From: a virus
Lineage: Duplodnaviria; Caudoviricetes
Strand: one strand, 5' to 3'
IMG/VR virus record: IMGVR_UViG_3300028585_000035
Span: 1 to 44,570 of that record
Length of the DNA: 44,570 bases
The notes beneath the pieces are model-generated. The model was not told where the DNA came from. It worked only from the letters and a program-made list of their open reading frames with translations, and did not search any database. The translations under genes and the position numbers were made by a program. The first letter of the stretch is position 1. Every line of letters begins with the position of its first letter. Below are positions 393-43,090 of the stretch, one piece after another.

Positions 393-429
393 ACAATCAG
401 ACATCCGATTTACAATTAGTCAACTTTTG

Positions 430-1434
430 ATGTTGACGGAGGCGGAATTGGACAAAGAACTTCGGCTCGACTGGAAAGAATTCAGCAAAGGCGCAGGGCA
501 TTGGCTCAAGCTCTTTGACGATTCATTCGCTTTGGATGGTGTGCCCCTGTATGCACGCCCCCTACGCTCGGCAATGAGGATGGTGAACGAGGCAATGCCC
601 GAACTCCCTTACGGAGACTCGAAAGAAGATAGCTATTTCCATAAGGAATGGTTTTCGGCTTTAGTTGTCGCTATACGCCATTGGTACGACGACCGTTATG
701 GAGCTGATGCCCTCACAGCGGCGAAGACGACGCTACCCGGATTGGCGATGCTCTACGGCACGCCTGTACGGCTCGAAATTAGAGAAACCCTAGCTAAGGT
801 TGAAGTTGAAGGAGAGACGTCTTGGTGTATCTGGCCAGATTCCATACATGACACTGAGAGCGTTCTTTCATTCCTCCCTCACAAACCTAATCTGCACGCG
901 TTAGAACCAGACGCACGTGCTAAGTTTGAGGAAGACGTTGGGACTGTCGTGCGACGTACTCGTACTATGAACCTTGCGCTTCAAGCTGCCTCTGGTCTTC
1001 CGGATGAAGGCAGGCAAATGGTGCCCGGCGTTATCCGTCACATCGAGAAAGGCGTGTCTGATATTCTCAGCCTGAGCCCAGCCAACGCAGCAGTTGCCGT
1101 ATGGGAGTTTCATTTGGCAGTCGAGAAAGCGTTCAAAGTGTATCTGCATCAAAACGGTAACATCCGCAAAACCCATGACTTAGCGACCCTTTACGAGCGC
1201 GCACAGGACTGCGGTTTATCCGTAACGGAAGCCGTGCTAAAAAAACTTCCCTTCTGGAAAAAATCAAGCGACTATCGCTACGCTGAAGAAGAAGTGTATA
1301 TCGAGCACGCTGTTGAAATCTATGATGCTGCTCTACAGCTAGTAGACGAAATAACATCTAAATTGCATCGTAGGTTAGTCATCAACAACGGCGCAATCCT
1401 GATGCGGAAACCCAAATGGGTAGGACGTAATTAG
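430..1434 (+). CDS. HEPN-domain-containing protein, candidate anti-phage cargo
   Basis: C-terminal FHLAVEKAFKVYL...KTHDLATLY...DYRY pattern typical of HEPN (PF05168-like); located next to att. Confidence 0.6.
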   Translation: MLTEAELDKELRLDWKEFSKGAGHWLKLFDDSFALDGVPLYARPLRSAMRMVNEAMPELPYGDSKEDSYFHKEWFSALVVAIRHWYDDRYGADALTAAKTTLPGLAMLYGTPVRLEIRETLAKVEVEGETSWCIWPDSIHDTESVLSFLPHKPNLHALEPDARAKFEEDVGTVVRRTRTMNLALQAASGLPDEGRQMVPGVIRHIEKGVSDILSLSPANAAVAVWEFHLAVEKAFKVYLHQNGNIRKTHDLATLYERAQDCGLSVTEAVLKKLPFWKKSSDYRYAEEEVYIEHAVEIYDAALQLVDEITSKLHRRLVINNGAILMRKPKWVGRN

Positions 1435-1475
1435 CCCGGCCAGGGCAGCCGACCGTCGAGCCCCACGGGACAGCG

Positions 1476-1598
1476 CTATAGTGATAGAAGAATCGCTACG
1501 CCGGTAGCGATGACGGCAACCGCCAAGGCTGCCATTCCACAGGACACCAGAAACACCAGTGCCCGCTGCGGGTCCTGCATGATTTCTCGTATCTTCAT
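1476..1598 (-). CDS. 40-aa single-TM membrane peptide
   Basis: Hand translation: MKIREIMQDPQRALVFLVSCGMAALAVAVIATGVAILLSL; below the ORF-track cutoff. Confidence 0.4.
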   Translation of the reverse strand: MKIREIMQDPQRALVFLVSCGMAALAVAVIATGVAILLSL

Positions 1599-1807
1599 GG
1601 CTTACGCAAAGTCTCCGTCGTCGAGGGGTGCAGCGCGGTCGTGCTCAGAAAGCTCGTAGTCGTTGAAGTCCATAGAGTCTCCAGATTGACAAGTCAATAT
1701 TACCGGAAATCGAGCCGGGTTAACAGCCCTCATCCGTGGCATCGTTGGCGACGGCTGGCAGTTGCAATCTTCGAGCCTGTGCTGCTTTAGCCAGTCCGCG
1801 CCGACGT

Positions 1808-2020
1808 TCAAGCCGCCCCGCCATGGCGCAATACGCCACCGTGGTCTTCCCAGTGCTTCACGGCATCCAGGCTGTAATAGACGCGGCCAGCTTGCTTAAC
1901 GAAGGCCGGCCCTCGGTTGATGTATCGCCAGTTTTCGATAGTCCTCTTGTTGTATGGCCGCGGGTAGCGAGCGGCCAAGTAGGCGGCAAGTTCAGCAGCA
2001 GTAAGGTAGGTAGGTTGCAT
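1808..2020 (-). CDS. Excisionase/AlpA-like winged-HTH DNA-binding protein
   Basis: MQPTYLTAAELAAYL...KRTIENWRYINRGPAFVKQAGRVYY is a typical HTH_17/Xis pattern; ATG at 2020. Confidence 0.75.
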   Translation of the reverse strand: MQPTYLTAAELAAYLAARYPRPYNKRTIENWRYINRGPAFVKQAGRVYYSLDAVKHWEDHGGVLRHGGAA

Positions 2021-2137
2021 AGTAAGCACTCCGGTAATCGTTCGTGCTATGTGTAGCAACCGAGTGTTTAGTCGTGCAAGAGCAAGGATTTCAGTCGACG
2101 CCCCCACTGCTGGGCGAAAAACCCGTAAACTATCGGG

Positions 2138-3019
2138 ATGGACAAAATTCTTTCCCTTTTTGACGAGCAACAGGCGCCGACACCGGCGCTGTCTGATATT
2201 TCTAGCAACAAAGCTGAGATTCTCATTGGCGATGTGCGTCAAGTCCTGCAGAGCATTCCAGACAACCACTTCCGGACCTGTGTGACTTCACCACCATATT
2301 GGGGGCTGCGTGACTACGGTATCGAAGGGCAGATTGGCGCTGAGACAGATGTGCGAGAGTACATCAAGGACCTCGTGGCTGTTTTCCGAGAAGTGCGCCG
2401 AACGCTCACGGACGACGGCACACTGTGGCTGAATATTGGCGACAGCTACACCTCAGGCGGCCGGACATGGCGACAGGAAGACTCGAAGAACAAAGGGAGG
2501 GGCATGACCTACCGGGCAGACACGCCGGAAGGCCTGAAGCCGAAAGATTTGATTGGCGTCCCATGGCGCCTGGCGTTTGCCCTCCAAGAGGATGGCTGGT
2601 ATCTGCGCACGGACATCATATGGAACAAACCGAACTGTCAACCAGAAAGCGTCAAAGACCGCCCTACTCGCTCGCATGAGTTTGTGTTCCTGCTCAGCAA
2701 GAGCCCGAAGTACTTCTACGATTGGGAAGCAGTGAAAGAGCCCGCCATCGACCAGAAGCAGGGCTCGAAAAATCGCAGGACGGTTTGGAACATCAATACG
2801 GAGCCGTACAAGGGGGCACACTTTGCCGTGTTCCCCCGAGCGCTCGCACGCCTTTGCATCCAAGCTGGCTCTCAGCCAGGCGACCGCGTGCTCGACCCGT
2901 TCTTCGGCAGCGGCACGACCGGCGTTGTCTGTAATGAACTTGGCCGGATGTGCACAGGCGTTGAGCTCAACGAAGAATACGCCGCCCTGGCGACCCAGCG
3001 TTTAAACCAAGGACGCTGA
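2138..3019 (+). CDS. Beta-class N4-cytosine DNA methyltransferase, M.SmaI/M.Cfr9I-like
   Basis: TSPPYWGLRDY catalytic motif precedes the DPFFGSGTTG SAM-binding motif; convergent with an REase gene. Confidence 0.9.
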   Translation: MDKILSLFDEQQAPTPALSDISSNKAEILIGDVRQVLQSIPDNHFRTCVTSPPYWGLRDYGIEGQIGAETDVREYIKDLVAVFREVRRTLTDDGTLWLNIGDSYTSGGRTWRQEDSKNKGRGMTYRADTPEGLKPKDLIGVPWRLAFALQEDGWYLRTDIIWNKPNCQPESVKDRPTRSHEFVFLLSKSPKYFYDWEAVKEPAIDQKQGSKNRRTVWNINTEPYKGAHFAVFPRALARLCIQAGSQPGDRVLDPFFGSGTTGVVCNELGRMCTGVELNEEYAALATQRLNQGR

Positions 3020-3766
3020 GTCGAACGACCAGGTCGCGTGAACGATGCAGAGGTCCTTACGCAAGCTCTTGATTTGCAGCTTGCGTTCGGTCCCACCATC
3101 GAAGTAGAGCGAGAATTTCAACCGCCCGGCAGTGTCGTACACATGACCGTACCCTGGCTTTGGAGTCTGCTTACTCTCGTTCCGCATTTCTAACGTCGCG
3201 TTAGCGCTTTCACGCAACAGCGTCATTGGAATCTCCACCAGCTCGTAGAGAAAACCCGTGGCGCCCTGCCGGTGGCACCGGAATTGGAACACGCGCTGGT
3301 AGCTATTCATGTGCGCGAGGAATTGGTCACGCAAGAGCGGAAGCTCCCACGCGCCTGAGCCAAGTTCCATAACTTTCGAGATGTGAAGCAAGTCAGCCTT
3401 GATGCTAGCGTCGGCCTGAGTTTTCAGGCTAACAGCTACGCCATCGACGGTAATGTCGTGGCCAGGGTTGCCCCGCTTCGCCAGCGTCGCATCGTGGCCA
3501 GCTCGCCTCAGTGCGCCCTCTAATGCGTGCTCAAAACTTTCTTTCGACAACGGGCGCTGCGCCATGGAGTGGTGCGCTAGCAGCGCGTCGCCAATGTGGC
3601 TCAGGCCTGTATCGGAAATGAAGTCACTCTCGGGATTGCGATAACCGACGGTTGCGGTCGAGAGCTTTGCAACCAAGTTCTTAACCAACAAGATTTGTGA
3701 CGGCGTCAACGCTTCGAGCGCGAGTGCGATGTCTTTGATGATTTCCTGCCGCTGCTGCTCGTCCAT
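3002..3766 (-). CDS. Type II restriction endonuclease, SmaI family (predicted CCCGGG)
   Basis: Segments NPGHDITVD..VSLKT, HISKVMELGSGAW, LVEIP, SKQTPKPGYG and KFSLYFDGGTERKLQIK match my recollection of R.SmaI; convergent overlap with the MTase. Confidence 0.85.
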   Translation of the reverse strand: MDEQQRQEIIKDIALALEALTPSQILLVKNLVAKLSTATVGYRNPESDFISDTGLSHIGDALLAHHSMAQRPLSKESFEHALEGALRRAGHDATLAKRGNPGHDITVDGVAVSLKTQADASIKADLLHISKVMELGSGAWELPLLRDQFLAHMNSYQRVFQFRCHRQGATGFLYELVEIPMTLLRESANATLEMRNESKQTPKPGYGHVYDTAGRLKFSLYFDGGTERKLQIKSLRKDLCIVHATWSFDSASLV

Positions 3767-9718: not shown

Positions 9719-10021
9719 TTAGCTCGCCGGTTCCCAGGGCATCTTCGGTACGATTACCTCAGGCAACGTCATTGCCCAGCGCTCGAGGAACTCCTGGTCG
9801 CTCAGCTGGCAAGATTTCGCGGCGGCTTGCAGACGGGCCTTGGCTGCAGGTGTCAGGCGTACGTTGAACTGCTGGAGCTTTGGCGGGGCCTTAGCGACGG
9901 GCACGGGGGCGGCTGGCGCTGGCTGCGCAGCTGGGGCGGCGAGTTGCGTCGCGTGGGCTTTCGCGGCCGCGCGGACGGCGTCGAGCGAAGAAGTGAGGCT
10001 TGGGGATGTCTTGGTTTTCAT
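9719..10021 (-). CDS. ParG-like ribbon-helix-helix partition partner
   Basis: Coupled to parA (stop/start overlap); flexible Ala/Pro N-terminus then QQFNVRLTPAAKARLQAAA...SDQEFLERW. Confidence 0.7.
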   Translation of the reverse strand: MKTKTSPSLTSSLDAVRAAAKAHATQLAAPAAQPAPAAPVPVAKAPPKLQQFNVRLTPAAKARLQAAAKSCQLSDQEFLERWAMTLPEVIVPKMPWEPAS

Positions 10022-10656
10022 TATTTGCTCCGGATGGCGGTGGTGAGAATTTCTACAGAGAGTGCGTCGAGTTCAGCGATGGCGTCATGGTTGGTTCGGC
10101 CCGGCATCTGACGCAGAGCCAGGCCACGCACTGGTGCTTCGCGGTAGACAGTGCGAGCCGCGAGCTGGGCACGGGCCGTTGGCCAAGTCTTGCGGATGTG
10201 ACCAGCCATCTCCGTTGCGAGATTTGTATACGACGCTTGGCTGACAACGACCAGTCGCGGGACCGAGGGCCGGCGCAGTTCGGCAGCGATGTGCATTGCA
10301 TCCGTAGCCCAGTAGTCAAGCGGGCTGCAACCGCATGGGATGACTACCAAGTCGGCTACGTCCAGTGCGGCCAGCGTTTCTGGCGCGGTCGACGACGGTG
10401 GGCAGTCGAGCAGTACGACGTCGTAGTCCTGCAGCTCAGCGAGTACGGCAGCCAGGGTTTCGGCATTGGCGGGCACTACCTTGGCAGGGAACTTACCCTC
10501 CCCAGCGGCAGACCACATGCTGGCGCTGGCCTGCGGGTCGAGGTCGACTACGGCGACCGTGTAGGTTTCGCTGGCCAAGTTGCCGGCAGTGAGCATGCAC
10601 GTCGTCGTTTTCGACGAGCCTCCTTTGTGATTCGCTACAGCGATTTTGAGTTTCAT
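10021..10656 (-). CDS. parA: ParA-family partition ATPase (short, type Ib/ParF-like)
   Basis: NHKGGSSKTT deviant Walker A, VDLDPQAS, LLDCPP; 211 aa with no N-terminal HTH. Confidence 0.92.
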   Translation of the reverse strand: MKLKIAVANHKGGSSKTTTCMLTAGNLASETYTVAVVDLDPQASASMWSAAGEGKFPAKVVPANAETLAAVLAELQDYDVVLLDCPPSSTAPETLAALDVADLVVIPCGCSPLDYWATDAMHIAAELRRPSVPRLVVVSQASYTNLATEMAGHIRKTWPTARAQLAARTVYREAPVRGLALRQMPGRTNHDAIAELDALSVEILTTAIRSK

Positions 10657-13324: not shown

Positions 13325-13690
13325 ATACAGAGATGTTGGCCACGATGTCTGTAGAAACCGGCCAAAAATACAGACTTTGAGCGCGCCCATCTCTGTAAGC
13401 CTGGCCAACTCTGTAGAGCAAGAACGCTCATCTCTGTATGCCGGCCAAGAAAGTTCAGCGCTCTTACAGAGTTCCACAGCCTTTCTACAGACATCTTACA
13501 GACATCTGAAATTTGTAAGTCTTTGATTTTTATAGGAAATACAGAGATTACAGAGATTACAGAGATGTTTAGGAGTATCTTCTATAGGGCACAGAATATT
13601 TATTTCAGAATTGGCTCAAGAAATATTTTATTTTTCTGTAGTGCTCACGGAGGGCCGGAAAACCTCTGTAATCTCTGTAATGTCTGTAAT
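13325..13690. other. Putative replication origin: inverted arrays of 9-bp TACAGAGAT iterons around an AT-rich core
   Basis: TACAGAGAT x3 at 13540-13566 and reverse-complement-like copies x3 at 13662-13688; more TACAGA/TCTGTA copies at 13327-13505; IHF-like site at 13516-13528; directly downstream of the helicase. Confidence 0.75.
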
Positions 13691-13871
13691 GCCATCTCCA
13701 GCTTGGAGGTTTTCACCCTAGAGCTGCGTTACTCCCCCAGCAGTACTCCCCTTCCCTCGGGCGCAACTTTCTCCGCTTGGCCGGTTTTCACCCTAAATCT
13801 GCGCTACTTCACCCTGAATCTGCGTGGCGGTGTCTATACGCCGGATACCCACCTACCACGCGAGATGACCA

Positions 13872-15560: not shown

Positions 15561-15589
15561 ACCTTAGAACACTCTAATTGGAGGCCGCA

Positions 15590-16174
15590 ATGGCGGACGA
15601 AATCAAAAACAAACCCCTTACACCGCCTCGCTGCGGAGCAGCGAAGAAGCGTGGCGGTGGCATCTGCCAAGCTCCTGCGATGAAGAACGGCCGTTGCCGC
15701 AGCCATGGCGGTGCATCTACTGGCGCGCCCGGCAATAAGAACGGCTACAAGCACGGCTTCTATTACAACGCGCTTTCTCTCGAGGAGCAGGCACAGTGGC
15801 CTGAGGCGATGGCCATGGGCTCAGGCCACACGGCGCTCGAGCATGACTTAGCGCTTATGCGTATCAAGTTGCAGCGCTTGCTGCGCGCAGCGAACGACCC
15901 CGACGTAGCGGCACGAATCGAGCAGGAGGTCGAGGTCATCATCAAAGCTGGCGTTGCACCGCGCGGCGACGCGCTGTCCGGCTACGATAAGCGCGAGCTG
16001 AAGACATCTCTCCCTCGCATCGGCTCACTCATCGTCGAGGCGGTGGAGACCATTCGTAAACTCTCGCTCTCAATCTCGCAGTTGAAGAAAGACGAAAAAG
16101 AACTTCTGGCAGACCAGCAAGACAACGATACCGACATCAATGTCACGATTAGCGTCGTCGGTAGCGCTAGCTAA
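15590..16174 (+). CDS. Probable terminase small subunit with HGGxSTG domain
   Basis: RCGAAKKRGGGICQAPAMKNGRCRSHGGASTGAPGNKNGYKHGFY; GGAGG SD; upstream of TerL. Confidence 0.75.
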   Translation: MADEIKNKPLTPPRCGAAKKRGGGICQAPAMKNGRCRSHGGASTGAPGNKNGYKHGFYYNALSLEEQAQWPEAMAMGSGHTALEHDLALMRIKLQRLLRAANDPDVAARIEQEVEVIIKAGVAPRGDALSGYDKRELKTSLPRIGSLIVEAVETIRKLSLSISQLKKDEKELLADQQDNDTDINVTISVVGSAS

Positions 16175-16421: not shown

Positions 16422-16517
16422 GTTGAAGTTGCATGTTTACAACGCGGTTTGGAGAGTTAGTGCCTATACGAATAAACGGCAAGACGTTCGTTTAATATTT
16501 ACTCAACGGAGAAAACA

Positions 16518-17201
16518 ATGACTGAAAGCAAATACATTTCGTATGTCCGCGCATCGACTCAACAGCAAGGCCGCTCTGGCCTCGGCATGGAGGCTCAACA
16601 GGCTGCGGTCATCGCCTACCTCCAGGGCGCACCGCTGGTAGCCGAATTCGTCGAGGTCGAGACGGGCAAGGGAGCCGACGCGCTGGAAAGGCGCCCGCAG
16701 CTGCGCGCCGCGCTAGCATTGTGCAAAAAGACCGGCGCCACGCTGGTCATCGCAAAGCTCGACCGCCTTGCTCGCAACGTGCATTTCATCTCCGGCCTCA
16801 TCGAGACGGGCGTCGACTTCGTGTGTGCTGACATGCCCCAGGCGAACAAAGTGATGCTCCAGATGTACAGCGTGATGAGCGAGTGGGAGCGTGACCAAAT
16901 TAGCGCCCGCACGAAAGCCGCATTGGCAGCAGCTAAAGCACGTGGCGTTCAACTCGGGGTGAAGGGCGCCGACAACCTGCGACCTAACGTAGAGGCCCGG
17001 CAGCAGGCAGCGGACGACTATGCAATCAAGATGGCTCCTGTCGTCAAGGGACTGCAGGCGCAGGGTATGAGCCAGCGTGCGATGGCTACTGCGCTGACCG
17101 ACCTGGGTGTGAAGACGCCTTCGGGCAAGACTGCCTGGGCACAGCGTCAGGTGGCGCTGCTGCTAGCTCGGATAGCAGAGACCACCGCCGCTCCTCTGTA
17201 A
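16518..17201 (+). CDS. Small serine recombinase (resolvase/invertase family)
   Basis: YVRAST catalytic motif, RPQL, AKLDRLARN, ERDQISARTKAAL, C-terminal HTH-like region. Confidence 0.93.
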   Translation: MTESKYISYVRASTQQQGRSGLGMEAQQAAVIAYLQGAPLVAEFVEVETGKGADALERRPQLRAALALCKKTGATLVIAKLDRLARNVHFISGLIETGVDFVCADMPQANKVMLQMYSVMSEWERDQISARTKAALAAAKARGVQLGVKGADNLRPNVEARQQAADDYAIKMAPVVKGLQAQGMSQRAMATALTDLGVKTPSGKTAWAQRQVALLLARIAETTAAPL

Positions 17202-17243: not shown

Positions 17244-17601
17244 CTTAGTCTTGATTCCAGCTCATTGCGCACAGTGGACATAAGACAGTGGTCGACGGTG
17301 CTGGTAAAGGCCTGCGCAGGCCCCGTTTACTATGCTTTTCGACGTGCTCCAGAGAGGCCTCTCAAAAAGGCCCTAATTTGGTCCCAAAAGGGGCTGCTTT
17401 TGAAAGGAAATAGGCCTGAAACAGCATGTTTTGAGGGCCCAGGGGGCCTATCCCTACCCCCCACCCCCTCTTGGCAGGCGCGCCCACGCGGGCTTGCCCC
17501 ACCCCAGAGGCGAAAACAAATCAAATTGATAAACGCGCCTCGTGCATGAGCGTGTAAAGCCAGTGCCTATACGAGTTACTTACAACTCGACTGGATACCG
17601 A

Positions 17602-18423
17602 ATGACCTCGCACCACACTTCATACCTCGACGCGGTGAATGCTCTACAGGAAGCAGCCGCCGCTTATTCCCGTAGTGTCACTAAGCAGCTCGACCGCATT
17701 GTCGTCCAAGCCGTCACCGAGTTTAAGGGGCGACCAGTAACGCTGGAAGAATTCCTCAAGCGTGCGACGAAGGATACTTTCGCCAATGGTGCCTACGTCC
17801 TCTACTGGGACAGCACTCCTATCCTGCGTGTGCAGGTCGACTTGCCCGAGCCGGACCTCACGGCGAATGTTCTCCACGCACCACGCATTACAGTCACTCG
17901 CTTCGCTGACTTTCAAAAGCAGCAGCAGGCCGAGATTGCCCACGTGGCGGCCAATTTTGACTACAGCATTTTCGCTGGCGCCAAGGGACGCTTAAGTGGC
18001 ACGGACTCTGGGCCTGCTACTCAACTGGTCGACGTTCAGTGTGAGGACCTCAACGACATCATGGCTTGGACGGTTCGCCGCGCGCTGGACGAGCCTGGAC
18101 TGGTGGTCTTCGTTGCACCCGCCTACCACCATGTTCGAAACATCATGGCTGAGATGGCTGACCTATTCCACCTTTTAGGCATACGGGTTCGTGCGTCCAC
18201 GATGGAGAACCGCATCACATTGGAGACCCATGGCGGCTCCATTAAGTTCTACACCTTCGCCGACGAGCACCGCCTCTATGGGCCTGAATTCAGCGATGCT
18301 GCCATCTACGGTCGCACCCTTGCGCCGGCGCAAGCCTCGGATTGGGTGGCGCCTCGAATGATGACACGCTTGCGCCGGCGCAAGGCCAACGGCGAGCCGA
18401 ATATGGTCGCCTACGCTCACTGA
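17602..18423 (+). CDS. Degenerate paralog of the terminase ATPase domain fused to an unknown N-terminal domain
   Basis: C-terminal about 170 aa align colinearly by eye with TerL residues 5-155; Walker A and Walker B are both disrupted. Confidence 0.7.
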   Translation: MTSHHTSYLDAVNALQEAAAAYSRSVTKQLDRIVVQAVTEFKGRPVTLEEFLKRATKDTFANGAYVLYWDSTPILRVQVDLPEPDLTANVLHAPRITVTRFADFQKQQQAEIAHVAANFDYSIFAGAKGRLSGTDSGPATQLVDVQCEDLNDIMAWTVRRALDEPGLVVFVAPAYHHVRNIMAEMADLFHLLGIRVRASTMENRITLETHGGSIKFYTFADEHRLYGPEFSDAAIYGRTLAPAQASDWVAPRMMTRLRRRKANGEPNMVAYAH

Positions 18424-18438: not shown

Positions 18439-19554
18439 TTAAGAATTTTCCGCGCGGTGTTTCGCCAAGAGCTTCAGAAAATGCTTTTCCATTGCTTCAG
18501 CTTCGGCGACTTTGGCAGCGTGCTCTGCTTTCGTGGCTGGGCGCCGCCCGTACGCATCCTGGAACATGAAACTGCCATCGTTCATTTTGACGAAAATCTC
18601 CCCGCCGCTCTTGAAAGTTCCCATCCGCGGTGGCAGCAGAAAGCGCCCAAGTTTCGGCCACATTCGAGTCTTGATGTGCTTCTCTGGATACAGCCCTTCC
18701 AGCGTACCGGCAGCGATGTACTTGTCTGCACGTTGCTTGATGATGTAGTTGACCTCAGCAACCTGCTCATCAGTCAGTTCTCGGCCGCGAATCGTCTTGT
18801 CGTGCCTAACGAGGGAGTTATCAAAATAGCGGGCATTGGTCCGTGGCTTGCGCGCAGCAGCTGGGACCACCCCTTTTACCCCTTCTAAATGGGTCAGGAT
18901 GAACAAATTGTCTTTGTCGAACGGGAAAATCGTCTGCGTGCCAACCCATTCGAGCTGGGGGTCCTTCGTAGTCTGTCCGGAGCTGCCGACAGGGAAAATG
19001 TGCGGGTTAAAAAAAGTGACGGGGTGGTCGGAAAAGATGAACTTATGCTTGGCGTTCTTAGCGGAGACAATCTCCAACACCCCTTCCATCCACATAAGGC
19101 AGTGCATTTTGCGCAGCTCTTGCATAAAAAACATGAGCTGCATCTGGCTCTTCGTTTTACCGATTTCTTCCAGCCAGCGTAATCCTTTCGGAGTACGAAG
19201 GCGCAGCGCGTCAATGAACTCGAAAACGTTCAAAAACAGGTCGTGAATTTTGTCGTGGTTCTCGGCCAGAAGGGCACCGACTGCTTCGGCGCCCTTGGTG
19301 TCGATTTCGCCGAATAAGTAGCGTTCAATCTCGTCGTTCGACTGCCCAAAAGCTTCGACTGTGTACAGGTGCTTCTCATAGAAAACGGCACCCGGTCCTC
19401 GCTTTTGGACGTCTTTCGCGACCGAGTAGCCCCCGGCCGGGAGCGGGAAACGCTTCGGGTGCTTATCGAGGACGTAAAGCTGCGTCTCCCCTTCTTCGAG
19501 AAATCCTTTCTGGTACCACTGGGGCACGTAGTGATGCTTATGGCTGGTCGACAT
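18439..19554 (-). CDS. DUF4238-domain protein, candidate anti-phage defence
   Basis: N-terminal HKHHYVPQWYQKGF, FYEKHLY, LRTP and FIFSDHPV motifs; antisense to the late operon. Confidence 0.8.
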   Translation of the reverse strand: MSTSHKHHYVPQWYQKGFLEEGETQLYVLDKHPKRFPLPAGGYSVAKDVQKRGPGAVFYEKHLYTVEAFGQSNDEIERYLFGEIDTKGAEAVGALLAENHDKIHDLFLNVFEFIDALRLRTPKGLRWLEEIGKTKSQMQLMFFMQELRKMHCLMWMEGVLEIVSAKNAKHKFIFSDHPVTFFNPHIFPVGSSGQTTKDPQLEWVGTQTIFPFDKDNLFILTHLEGVKGVVPAAARKPRTNARYFDNSLVRHDKTIRGRELTDEQVAEVNYIIKQRADKYIAAGTLEGLYPEKHIKTRMWPKLGRFLLPPRMGTFKSGGEIFVKMNDGSFMFQDAYGRRPATKAEHAAKVAEAEAMEKHFLKLLAKHRAENS

Positions 19555-19637
19555 AGCGAGTCTGGTTGCGAACGATACGTAACTATAGCTCAGTAAACGC
19601 TGCGGAAACACGGTGAGGGAGTTCGCTATACAGGTCG

Positions 19638-20930
19638 ATGAATATCGACCTAAACCTCACCCAACCCCAGCGGGACTTCGTACTCTCCACCGCCAAATAC
19701 CCCGCCTTCGTTGGCGGGTTTGGTGCTGGCAAGTCGGAATCGCTGGTGAACCGGCTGCTGCTCCAGGCGCTCCAGAACCCTCAGGGTCAGGTCGGTTATT
19801 TCGCTCCGACGTTCGACCTGATTCGACTGATTGCCTGGCCGCGCTTCCTGGCCAAGTGCGACGAGTGGGGCTTGCGCGCGACCCTTAACAAAACTGAAAA
19901 CATCCTGACGCTCAAACGCGGCGGCCGCATCGTGTTCCGCACGCTCGACACCCCAGAGCGCATCGTTGGTTTCGAAATCTGCCACGCCGGTATCGACGAG
20001 CTGGACACCCTCAAAGAGGAGCACGCCCTAGCCGCCTGGCGGGCCGTTAACGCGCGTGTGCGTATGAAAACCCGCGACGGCTCCCCGAACACCGTGTCGG
20101 TCGGCACGACGCCTGAGGGCTTCAAACTCGTCTACAAGCTTTGGGAGCAAAACCCGAAGGCCGGCTTCCAGCTGTACCGCGCGCCTACGAGCTCGAACCC
20201 ATTCCTACCTGCAGACTACGTCGCACAGCTGATGACGCAGTACCCGCCGCACCTGCTCCAGGCATACCTGGAGGGCTTGTTCGTCAACCTCGCATCGGGC
20301 TCGGTCTACCCAGCTTTCTCTCGCGTCTTGAACTACACCGACGCCACCGTTACCACGGTCCAGAATCACCACGGCATGCTCCTTGGCCAGCCCGAGGCTC
20401 TGCACATTGGCATGGACTTCAACAAAGGAAACGGCGCCGCGGCCATCGCAGTCATCCGCGACGGCCTGCCTCTTATCGTGGGTGAAGAGTGCAAAACCCG
20501 CGACACCCCCGAGATGATTGAACGGCTGCAGACGCGCTTCCCTGGCCACCACATCACCGTCTACCCAGACGCATCGGGTAGGCACGGCAACAGCACGAAT
20601 GCGTCGGAATCGGACTTGAGCCTGTTGCGGGCCGCAGGCTTTACGGTCTGCACTAGGAACGCCAACCCGCGCGTAGTGGACCGCGTGACGTCTTTAAACG
20701 CAATGATTTTGAATGCCGAGGGCCAGCGCCGTCTTCTCGTAAACACGGCCGCCTGTCCCGAAATCACGCTGTGCCTGGAGCAACAGGTCTACGACAAGGC
20801 CGGCGCCCCCGACAAGTCCGGCGGCAAGGACCACATGAACGACGCCGTGGGCTACCTCATCCACTTCCTATGGCCTGTGGTCAAGCCTGTCGCTACACGT
20901 GAGACACAAATCATTCACGTCGGACGCTAA
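19638..20930 (+). CDS. terL: Terminase large subunit
   Basis: GGFGAGKS Walker A, AGIDE Walker B, TTPEG coupling motif, nuclease IGMDFN...YPDASG...DHMNDA. Confidence 0.95.
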   Translation: MNIDLNLTQPQRDFVLSTAKYPAFVGGFGAGKSESLVNRLLLQALQNPQGQVGYFAPTFDLIRLIAWPRFLAKCDEWGLRATLNKTENILTLKRGGRIVFRTLDTPERIVGFEICHAGIDELDTLKEEHALAAWRAVNARVRMKTRDGSPNTVSVGTTPEGFKLVYKLWEQNPKAGFQLYRAPTSSNPFLPADYVAQLMTQYPPHLLQAYLEGLFVNLASGSVYPAFSRVLNYTDATVTTVQNHHGMLLGQPEALHIGMDFNKGNGAAAIAVIRDGLPLIVGEECKTRDTPEMIERLQTRFPGHHITVYPDASGRHGNSTNASESDLSLLRAAGFTVCTRNANPRVVDRVTSLNAMILNAEGQRRLLVNTAACPEITLCLEQQVYDKAGAPDKSGGKDHMNDAVGYLIHFLWPVVKPVATRETQIIHVGR

Positions 20931-40539: not shown

Positions 40540-41964
40540 TCAGCAAGCCATCGCCTCAACGCCGGGTTTCGCCCACGCCATCACTTCGTCTTGTGTAATC
40601 GCCCGGCCCTCGAGACGCTGCAGGCAGAGCTCGTCAACCGTCCCCCGAGCCAAGATGTAGAACTCCCGAACTACGCGGTCATAGCCGCTTTGCAGCTGCC
40701 GAACCGGTCCAACACGCTCGCGCACTTGCTGGAACAGCTCCAGGTCGAAAGCGTGAGCAAAGAAGCAGATGTTCCGGCCGCCATGCTGCAAGTTCAACCC
40801 GTGGCCCGCAGATGCAGGGTGCACCGCCAGCAGTGGAATCGTCCCGTCACCTTTGTTCCAGTCATCCTCGTCCTTTTGCGTCTTCAGCTCGCGTAGCTCA
40901 GGAAAGCGCTTCTTCAATCGGTCTAGGTCCGATTTCAACTGATAGACCACCAGTAGCTGCTCACCCCCCAATTCCTCGATGACGGACTCCAAAGCGTCGA
41001 GTTTCTCATCGTGGAGCACCTCATAGTCAGCCTTGCCCACCTCGCGATATACAGCACCGCTGCACATCTGCAGCAGTCGATTCGACAGGACCGCGCTGTT
41101 GGGTGCTTTCAAGCCGAAGCCGGCGACATGGGTGATGAACTCTGTTTGCAGTTCCTTGTAGCCAACCTGGACTTTCGGGGGCAGGTCCACCCAAACGTGT
41201 GAAATCTGTGGCGCCTTGAGGTCAAAGTAGTCTTCGGGTTTGAGGGTGAGCGCCAGGTCCTTCACCTTGCCCATCACTTGCTCGAGCGCTCCCTTTTTCG
41301 GGCTGTACAGGCTCACGTACTGGTCAAGCTTGAACTCGTTGAAGTAGGTGCCGGTCCAGGCGCTGTAGGTCTTCCCAAGGCGCTCGCCATGGTCGAGGAA
41401 ATAGACTTGGCCAAAGAGGTCCATGAGCCCTTTCGGGGATGGAGTGCCCGTCAGCTGAATGAAACGGGTTCCGGCGGCCTTGGTCGCGTCGTAAAGTGCC
41501 TTGGCTCGCTTCGTGCCTTGGCGCGGGCGGAAGCCACGCAACTTGGAAGCTTCGTCAGCTACTACCGTCGAAAACGGCCACGGCATCTTTAACTTGGCCA
41601 AGTGGTCGAGTAACCAGGGTAGCGACTCGTAATTGATGCACAAGACGTCAGCGTCTTCGCAAATAGCTTCGGTGAACAACTTCTCACGTTTTTTCGGGGT
41701 GTCCCCACAGATGCTGCGCACGTCCAAGCCAGCCAAATGCTCCCATTTCAGCGCCTCTGCGGGCCACGTGCCTCGAGCGACACGGAGTGGCGCAACGACT
41801 AGGGCAATGCCCAATTCTCCGCGCTCTTTAAGCGTCGAGAACGCGCTGAGAGTCGAGACTGTCTTACCCATCCCCATGCCGGCCCACAGGGCGCAGCGCA
41901 CGACCTGCAGCATGTGTTTGATGGCCAGGCGCTGATATTCCCGCGGAGCGAATGGCTTACGCAT
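40540..41964 (-). CDS. SNF2-like SF2 helicase
   Basis: PREYQ, GMGMGKT, VADEAS, LTGTP, HPASAGHGLNLQ; ATG at 41964. Confidence 0.92.
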   Translation of the reverse strand: MRKPFAPREYQRLAIKHMLQVVRCALWAGMGMGKTVSTLSAFSTLKERGELGIALVVAPLRVARGTWPAEALKWEHLAGLDVRSICGDTPKKREKLFTEAICEDADVLCINYESLPWLLDHLAKLKMPWPFSTVVADEASKLRGFRPRQGTKRAKALYDATKAAGTRFIQLTGTPSPKGLMDLFGQVYFLDHGERLGKTYSAWTGTYFNEFKLDQYVSLYSPKKGALEQVMGKVKDLALTLKPEDYFDLKAPQISHVWVDLPPKVQVGYKELQTEFITHVAGFGLKAPNSAVLSNRLLQMCSGAVYREVGKADYEVLHDEKLDALESVIEELGGEQLLVVYQLKSDLDRLKKRFPELRELKTQKDEDDWNKGDGTIPLLAVHPASAGHGLNLQHGGRNICFFAHAFDLELFQQVRERVGPVRQLQSGYDRVVREFYILARGTVDELCLQRLEGRAITQDEVMAWAKPGVEAMAC

Positions 41965-42292
41965 TGGCCGCCTCCGCCATCTGCGCGCACCAGACGTCGA
42001 CCTCATCGCGCGAGGACAGCACGATGACGTCCATGCCCTGCTCGAGCATTTCGTCATGCTCGGCCTTTTGCAGCGGCCTCAGCCCTTCACCGGGCTTCTT
42101 CAGCTCGATAAACCAGACCTTCGCCTTGCGCGGTCCGCTCGCTTTGATGCCAACGATGCGGTCTGGGACCCCACGATGACCGGGGCTTACGAACTTGCGG
42201 CAGTACCAGCCGTGTTCTTTGCAGCGTTTGATGAGTCGCTGCTCGACGTCCTTCTCAATTTCAGGACGGCGAAGTGTTGTTGTTTTTAGCAT
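41957..42292 (-). CDS. VRR-NUC domain nuclease
   Basis: EKDVE, GVPDRI, FIELKKPG..LRPLQ. Confidence 0.9.
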   Translation of the reverse strand: MLKTTTLRRPEIEKDVEQRLIKRCKEHGWYCRKFVSPGHRGVPDRIVGIKASGPRKAKVWFIELKKPGEGLRPLQKAEHDEMLEQGMDVIVLSSRDEVDVWCAQMAEAANA

Positions 42293-42403
42293 TAGAAGGG
42301 CTCATGGCAAATGCACGCACATGCATGCCCTTCGTGTAGCAACCGCCGTTATACGGGGTGAAATCTGGGGATATACTAAGGGGGTGAACCAAAGGAGAAC
42401 CCC

Positions 42404-43090
42404 ATGGCCAACCGCGAACTACCTGACTATCTGCCCTCGGATTGGCCGGAGTACGCCGCCATCCCCACGCGCGCCGAATGGGACCGCGCGATGGAAGAAG
42501 ACCGTATTGCGGAAAGAGCTTTTGAACAGATGAAGCATCCGCGCTCGCAGTCGCCAACACCTGAGTCGATAGCGGCCGGCGAGGCACATTTGGCAGAGGC
42601 CCACGTACGCGCTGCGGAGACTGTGAAGGGGCAAATTGAGAGCAAAGAATTGCTTACTGCAGACGAGTTTTGCGACGTTCTCGAAGTAGATGTCGATTGG
42701 CTTGACGCCGCTTTGGACGAGTACAGGGTGTTTGCAATTACTGGTCCTGGCGGTCGTGCCTACTATCCTGCGTTTTATGCCGACACGGGTATCCGACGTG
42801 AGCACTTGGAGCGAGTCACGCGTACGCTTGCTCTCCTCCATCCACGTTCGCAATTTCTTTTTTATACGACGGTCCGGACGTCGCTCGGCGAGACGCCGCT
42901 TGACGCCCTCCGTGCTGGCCGCCTCGACGACGTGATAACCGCGGCATTACGAGCTGCTGCAGACGCTCCGCAACGGGTGCCGTCGATTGTCGAGGTACTC
43001 AGTGGAGAGTCTTGGCCGCCCAAGGTCGCGCCACGGCATGACCCTAGCCAGTCGTTTGCCGATGTTCTCAAGGGCGCCAAGCCTCGGTGA
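42404..43090 (+). CDS. Hypothetical protein, possibly HTH plus Xre/MbcA-like C-terminus
   Basis: LLTADEFCDVLEV...YYPAFY...SLGETPLDALRAG; AAGGAG SD. Confidence 0.55.
   Translation: MANRELPDYLPSDWPEYAAIPTRAEWDRAMEEDRIAERAFEQMKHPRSQSPTPESIAAGEAHLAEAHVRAAETVKGQIESKELLTADEFCDVLEVDVDWLDAALDEYRVFAITGPGGRAYYPAFYADTGIRREHLERVTRTLALLHPRSQFLFYTTVRTSLGETPLDALRAGRLDDVITAALRAAADAPQRVPSIVEVLSGESWPPKVAPRHDPSQSFADVLKGAKPR

Follow-up and report, generated by a model that had tools for sequence, protein, structure and literature searches.

Locus and phage setting

The window, that is, the whole stretch of DNA analysed, is a complete virus record of 44,570 bp from a temperate myophage, whose genes include those for an integrase, an excisionase-like protein, tail sheath, baseplate, primase and lysis. 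Its accessory genes, a SmaI-type restriction-modification pair, a HEPN gene and a DUF4238 gene, are defence-like. The packaging region runs from a terS-like gene through a serine recombinase gene, an open reading frame (ORF) and a reverse-strand DUF4238 gene to terL and the portal gene (Table 1). The position between terS and terL that an earlier note on this DNA gave for the ORF holds, with the recombinase gene intervening on the terS side and the DUF4238 gene on the terL side. The intact frame described there is also borne out, as the ORF is open over 273 aa and the frames of its relatives are intact.

Table 1. Features of the packaging region and other elements of the phage.
Feature	Coordinates	Strand	Remarks
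HEPN-like gene	427..1434		accessory block 427-3766, 74-89% with G005
N4/N6 methyltransferase gene	2138..3019		same block
SmaI-family endonuclease gene	3002..3766	-	same block
Palindrome CTTGCGCCGGCGCAAG, ten exact copies	7582, 7731, 8485, 8553, 9645, 18319, 18369, 25064, 40466, 40500		16 bp
100-aa ORF of no known family	9719..10021	-	
parA	10024..10656	-	
Inverted arrays of short ACAGAGATT repeat	13530..13693		3' of primase gene
Likely TerS	15578..16174	+	PHROG terminase small subunit, E 1.4e-6
Serine recombinase (resolvase family)	16518..17201	+	own motif copy at 16460; syntenic in G001
Phage promoter-like motif (TCGTGCA..CGTGTAAA..GTGCCTATAC)	17539..17573	+	29 nt 5' of ATG
Whole ORF, 273 aa (P0001)	17602..18423	+	N-terminal part of no assigned family fused to degenerate TerL ATPase core
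Lineage-specific N-terminal ~141 aa	17602..18024	+	no confident family; absent from orthologues; purifying selection among close relatives
Conserved mini-terminase core, residues 142-273	18025..18423	+	TerL Walker A position to just before TTP coupling motif
Palindrome copy inside core 3' end	18319..18334	.	perfect, 16 bp; one of the ten exact copies
R256-L257-R258	18367..18375	+	invariant in 5/5 aligned family members; matches TerL R140-x-R142
Second palindrome copy in ORF	18369..18384	.	16 bp; overlaps R-L-R codons
DUF4238 gene	18439..19611	-	convergent with ORF; two short forward ORFs in its place in G001
Shorter motif variant ending CTATAC	19618..19635		immediately 5' of terL, also in G001
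Intact TerL, 430 aa (Terminase_6N + Terminase_6C)	19638..20930	+	putative parent of core
SNF2-like helicase gene and 228-aa ORF of no known family	40540..43090		helicase on - strand; between tail fibre and integrase genes; weak DpdE/DrmD/ZorD helicase matches

A TerL-based search found the phage G001 (L002; TerL 85%), classed as a provirus, and a fragment, G002 (L001); IMG/VR gave only these two, and no loci of the ORF were seen in the genome contigs searched. A further genome, G005, has early, restriction-modification and lysis genes in common with this phage but carries a different terS-terL pair, in which the two genes are adjacent; we take its terminase to be lambda GpA-like, judging by its motifs. 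This one genome gave no match to the core described below or to the serine recombinase, the gene for which is kept between terS and terL in G001 (84%).

The DUF4238 gene is a reverse insertion of lower GC that is absent from G001 and has no PADLOC match; it is a possible defence moron. One gene separates the ORF from terL here, and two do so in G001. Since the CTATAC-ending motif variant precedes terL in both phages, the arrangement suggests that terL has had a start signal of its own since its separation from terS. The ACAGAGATT arrays are likely the replication origin.

Kinship with the terminase large subunit

Sequence comparison and predicted structures together confirm residues ~142-273 of the ORF product as a paralogue of the ATPase domain of this phage's own TerL, without the motifs for binding and splitting ATP. 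BLASTP matches residues 160-270 with TerL 43-154 (31% identity, E=7e-6). The Smith-Waterman score of the ORF product against TerL is 75, compared with 34.0 ± 5.1 for shuffled sequences, and 0 of 1000 shuffles scored as high. In a structure search of the ESM Atlas, each of the 10 best rows was a terminase large subunit, aligned over residues ~117-273. The agreement of these results supports the catalytically dead terminase ATPase copy proposed in the earlier note. The block-by-block match to TerL described there is upheld for residues 160-270, but its first block, YSIFAGAKG, finds no support: against TerL, residues 1-140 score 28, a value reached by 766 of 1000 shuffles, and the block is absent from the short orthologues. 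Fusion to an unrelated N-terminal domain likewise stands, with a length of ~141 aa instead of ~100.

The fold assignment is based on Atlas models of P0001 and of P0009, the short orthologue in G001, and on a single AF2 model for the latter. In superpositions on terminase ATPases, P0009 as modelled in the Atlas (pTM 0.81) reaches TM-scores of 0.82-0.89, and the AF2 model, built from a five-member alignment, displays an alternating helix-strand core (pLDDT 73, pTM 0.71). The core is thus likened to the phage TerL ATPase domain (Pfam Terminase_6N / Terminase_3; ASCE fold) by homology to TerL 43-154 and by a predicted fold with a TM-score of up to 0.89. It differs from an active TerL in having no Walker A, Walker B DE, coupling motif, lid or nuclease, and it falls below all profile thresholds. 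The earlier note would have counted the lack of any profile or structure match to terminases against its proposal; a structure match was found in the Atlas, and the profile libraries were silent, with no terminase match for P0001, P0009 or P0013 (a member of a third lineage) in Pfam, PHROGs, NCBIfam or PADLOC. A PDB sequence search with the core profile gave nothing credible. The N-terminal domain had no match in plasmids, and a weak pPIWI_RE_Y match of residues 9-61 (E 0.004-0.008, below the cut-off) is not trusted.

Relatives and origin of the core

Word-index searches with the ORF gave near-identical 273-aa proteins only, and its relatives of the same length are P0003 (97%) and P0004 (90%, full length). 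At the same place in G001 lies the gene for P0009, a stand-alone protein of 131 aa that is 40% identical to ORF residues 145-272 and is preceded by the same recombinase, the same motif and a GAGG ribosome site; the two phages are 81% identical over 17442-17573. A phmmer search with P0009 against 1.84 billion representatives gave five hits, namely P0009, P0003, P0013 and two repeat proteins, which were rejected as relatives. P0013 (130 aa, 35%, E 3e-12) represents the third lineage, found together with its cluster mate P0016 (132 aa) on contigs of 42 kb and 15 kb. The core family is rare, with three clusters among these representatives, and in 50,697 phage records tblastn gave nothing credible for P0001, P0009 or P0013. 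Because the two other lineages encode the core as a stand-alone protein (130-132 aa, 35-40% identity), the alignments indicate that the ~130-aa core is the conserved unit and the ~141-aa N-terminal part an addition of this lineage. An Atlas search with P0009 also gave 30 unnamed look-alike clusters, the three shown being mostly viral, of 118-150 aa and with scores of 0.94-0.95; these clusters, which could be gene fragments, count as leads only.

Among the 12 TerLs tested, the core-family profile scored that of this phage highest (26.7 bits), followed by those of G001 (25.8) and Caulobacter phage DMCA (24.6), with the remaining nine below 12 bits. This is consistent with an origin of the core by duplication of the clade's own terL. 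With a TerL profile, a second TerL-like ORF at E<1e-3 was found only in this clade among 134 loci, most of which have distant TerLs, making this a weak test of generality. In G001, P0009 is followed by a 107-aa ORF (L002 9381-9704; a singleton cluster) whose first ~25 residues match TerL ~181-204, in the lid region (score 85, 0 of 1000 shuffles), ahead of an unrelated tail. As this next ORF starts with a further piece of TerL, the duplication was evidently once longer.

Residues lost and residues kept

The anatomy of the core was read from an alignment of family members with six TerLs. All members begin at the Walker A position, and the motif itself (GxxxxGK[ST]) is absent from every one of them, C-x-D standing in place of the G-K-S of TerL. 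The earlier note had seen the GKS as replaced by an insertion; since the first block is unsupported and the short orthologues are without it, the P-loop is better read from these sequences as deleted than as interrupted by an insertion. The change of the Walker B DE to YG is confirmed, with TerL D120/E121 aligned to Y236/G237 in the ORF and YG or HG across the family. All members end just before the TerL coupling motif T157-T158-P159. The N-terminal TerL segment, the lid subdomain and the RNase H-like nuclease are missing; the absence of the nuclease had been noted before and agrees with the lack of a Terminase_6C match. The core boundaries are identical in three lineages and coincide with the loss of the cis-acting motifs.

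Across the three lineages, 27 columns are invariant. The family keeps P-T/A, G-G-x-I, G and R-L-R, and it has specific residues without a TerL counterpart (C-x-D, W-x-V, F-x-D-A-A-x-x-G and L-x-P). The R-L-R motif corresponds to R114-L115-R116 in P0009 numbering and is invariant in 5/5 aligned members; the TerL counterpart of its first arginine, R140, is invariant in 6/6 aligned TerLs. A second arginine candidate (TerL R108, R224 in the ORF) is lost in P0013. In the D6E TerL, the proven trans-arginine finger is R158, located after Walker B on the loop that connects alpha3 and beta4; P74-26 uses an arginine of a different loop, R139 (PMC5727402). By position against D6E R158 only, R-L-R is a candidate trans-arginine-finger loop, a match that is uncertain because it is positional and the P74-26 finger sits elsewhere. 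In the lineage of this phage, a repeated palindrome (18369..18384) overlaps the R-L-R codons, so that some of the conservation seen there could be due to the DNA sequence itself.

Selection on the gene

There is no DNA-level BLAST match between the ORF and its G001 orthologue, with pN of 0.38, saturated pS of 0.76 and identities of 0.59/0.67/0.33 at the three codon positions; both frames are intact. Between the two phages the core is 41% identical, whereas the matching TerL segment is 96% identical. Variants of the gene also lie on the metagenome contigs X2 (groundwater), X8 (soil) and X12 (surface). The listed substitutions in X2 comprise 13 synonymous and 8 nonsynonymous changes in the N-terminal part and 3 and 1 in the core; those in X8 comprise 16 and 10, and 6 and 2, respectively. 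For the core of X12, 18 synonymous and 14 nonsynonymous changes were counted from the 35 of 50 differences listed, and its frame carries one compensated +1/-1 pair, four bases apart. With 106/318 sites for the N-terminal part and 98/298 for the core, pN/pS is about 0.2-0.26 among close relatives, from the substitutions listed, and that of X12 is at most about 0.5 if all unlisted changes are nonsynonymous (hand arithmetic).

Because the frames are intact and the changes mostly synonymous, the gene appears from these comparisons to be constrained yet fast-evolving, and not a decaying duplicate. Frameshifted orthologues with dN/dS near 1, by which the earlier note would have recognised decay, were not what was found, the frames being intact and pN/pS about 0.2-0.5; the excess of synonymous changes supports its catalytically dead paralogue kept by selection. 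That the ORF is nevertheless a slowly decaying, functionless leftover of a partial terL duplication could be argued from its high divergence, from the rarity of the family and from the further TerL piece in G001, as if a longer duplication had broken up. However, frame, length, start signals and the 27 invariant columns persist in three lineages with synonymous sites saturated, and even when every unlisted change is counted as nonsynonymous, pN/pS between close relatives stays at about 0.5 or less. This explanation is largely refuted, and we regard it as very improbable.

Upstream motif and palindromes

The motif GTGCCTATAC has 7 matches phage-wide at ≤1 mismatch, compared with 1.17 expected. 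It also precedes structural and lysis genes (13830, 23479, 30521), including lysis, capsid and tail genes, and is kept 5' of the orthologue in G001. The full promoter motif announced in the earlier note is thereby supported as a repeated phage motif but not as a sigma-70 consensus, of which 0 sites were found; we infer its promoter function.

The two palindromes within the ORF belong to a set of ten exact copies of CTTGCGCCGGCGCAAG, with 0.07 expected at ≤2 mismatches. Five copies cluster just downstream of parA and the adjoining 100-aa ORF. We take them to resemble parS sites, and from their distribution they are likely dispersed parS-type centromere sites, which would imply a plasmid-like state besides the integrase. 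The palindrome is absent from G001 at ≤2 mismatches and from G005 at ≤3; single copies were seen in 23 viral stretches. It was not found in 401 sampled bacterial genomes of one class, and a host repeat was rejected on that basis.

Possible binding to TerL and alternative roles

A complex model of G001 TerL 1-225 and ATP with the G001 orthologue scored 0.59, compared with 0.00 for the best of 3 controls. The mark applied is reached by 116/157 solved complexes and 2/215 mismatched pairs, and scores passing it at 0.60 or under include only 18/157 solved complexes and both passing mismatches. Contact agreement between runs is at least 75% and the partner pLDDT is at least 85; the interface is not given. 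The controls included no TerL-TerL pair, and the pass may reflect likeness to terminase oligomers. Among the functions suggested in the earlier note, the model (0.59 against 0.00) lends weak support to those that involve binding of the core to TerL.

Every cis motif is lost from the core while a candidate trans face is kept, which leads us to consider it a one-faced subunit. In our preferred but tentative interpretation, the core product would bind real TerL subunits as a one-faced cap and brake ring assembly, perhaps also hiding the ATP pocket read by Avs. In terminase rings, one subunit lends an arginine finger to the ATP pocket of its neighbour. The core would keep the lending face and offer the next subunit neither pocket nor lid, so that it could dock on TerL and end the ring. 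Capped TerL would neither cut nor pump until the core is driven off by proheads or by excess TerL, and the separate promoter-like motif would let the dose and timing of the core differ from those of terL. As a side effect, the core would cover the ATP pocket read by the Avs2/Avs3 sensors. The absence of the core gene from G005, which has another terminase, supports capping, in one genome. On the other side, the fast divergence of the core (41%, against 96% for TerL) fits poorly with a rigid interface to the phage's own TerL.

The fold could instead have been co-opted away from the motor, for example to bind DNA by way of its basic R-L-R-R-x-K end or to contact some other protein of phage or host. 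Within this segment, terminase ATPase domains have a basic patch with which they hold DNA (10.1101/080440), the family-specific residues may be a sign of new constraint, and one lineage gained a 141-aa domain. Co-option nevertheless appears doubtful, since the core gene stays by terL in both lineages of known context and the model weakly supports TerL binding.

A role against rival phages would have the core made by a lysogen and poison the packaging rings of superinfecting phages with related terminases. The phage is temperate, G001 is a provirus and the accessory genes are defence-like; fast divergence, the gene's own promoter-like motif and the cross-match to other terminases (DMCA, 24.6 bits) would also suit this role. 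However, the same motif precedes structural and lysis genes, which points to lytic expression, and the phage would have to shield its own TerL. We therefore consider such an outward role unlikely.

Capping can also be set against a direct decoy, in which the core would fill the TPR sensor of Avs without triggering tetramerisation, since it would hold no ATP. According to a recent report, Avs2 reads the terminase ATPase domain alone, via the ATP that Walker A and the catalytic Glu hold in place, and mutations of the ATP bridge weaken activation (10.64898/2026.08.25.746987). A decoy would draw on this recognition through the kept core sheet of the ATPase fold, and its fast divergence would suit an arms race. 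Without the ATP bridge, however, binding should be weaker too, making the core a poor competitor against TerL, and Ksap2, a small phage protein with weak likeness to the TerL ATPase, activates KpAvs2 instead of blocking it (PMC11564622). Avs sensors also appear to target monomers (PMC13581612). Because Avs2 reads bound ATP, Ksap2 activates and the sensors appear to target monomers, the direct decoy is weakened and is the less likely role, to which we give a low probability, while shielding of TerL by capping is plausible.

Relation to known systems and significance

A second, incomplete terminase-domain gene near terL is shared with Rak2-like jumbo phages and the Sinorhizobium phages phiM12 and phiN3, where the truncated large terminase, CBB_274, lies beside terL and is described as unusual and unexplained (PMC5259590). 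These copies derive from T4 gp17-type terminases of jumbo or T4-like phages and still match the gp17 domain model (PMC5259590). In contrast to the CBB_274 kind, the core studied here has a TerL of 430 aa as its parent, belongs to a temperate myophage of 44 kb, spans ~130 aa and has lost the P-loop outright; set apart by these descriptions, its origin is likely independent of the Rak2-like and phiM12 truncated terminases. Ksap2 of phage Bas60 is likewise a small phage protein structurally like the TerL ATPase domain (PMC11564622).

Satellite interference offers a further comparison. The PICI interference proteins Ppi and Rpp target TerS and are not known to be TerL paralogues. Like them, the core would act on terminase subunits; its gene instead sits in a complete phage. 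In the open-access literature searched, no paper was found on such a core family or on a function for it. It would be a long step, and in our estimate an unlikely one, to conclude that ATPase-dead mini-terminases have arisen in tailed phages several times independently, and that they cap the TerL pocket, time assembly and cloak monomeric TerL from Avs, with the 130-aa family as the minimal form and the 30 Atlas clusters maybe as further cases.

Truncated terminases adjacent to terL have been noted as unusual since 2017, with no function assigned in the papers found. Trimmed to 130 residues, with borders that coincide with the loss of every cis-acting ATPase motif, the core offers a small and cleanly testable reagent. 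It could show whether phages regulate the packaging ring by a dead subunit, poison the motors of rivals or hide TerL from Avs, and it would lend itself naturally to use in trapping the assembly states of terminase.
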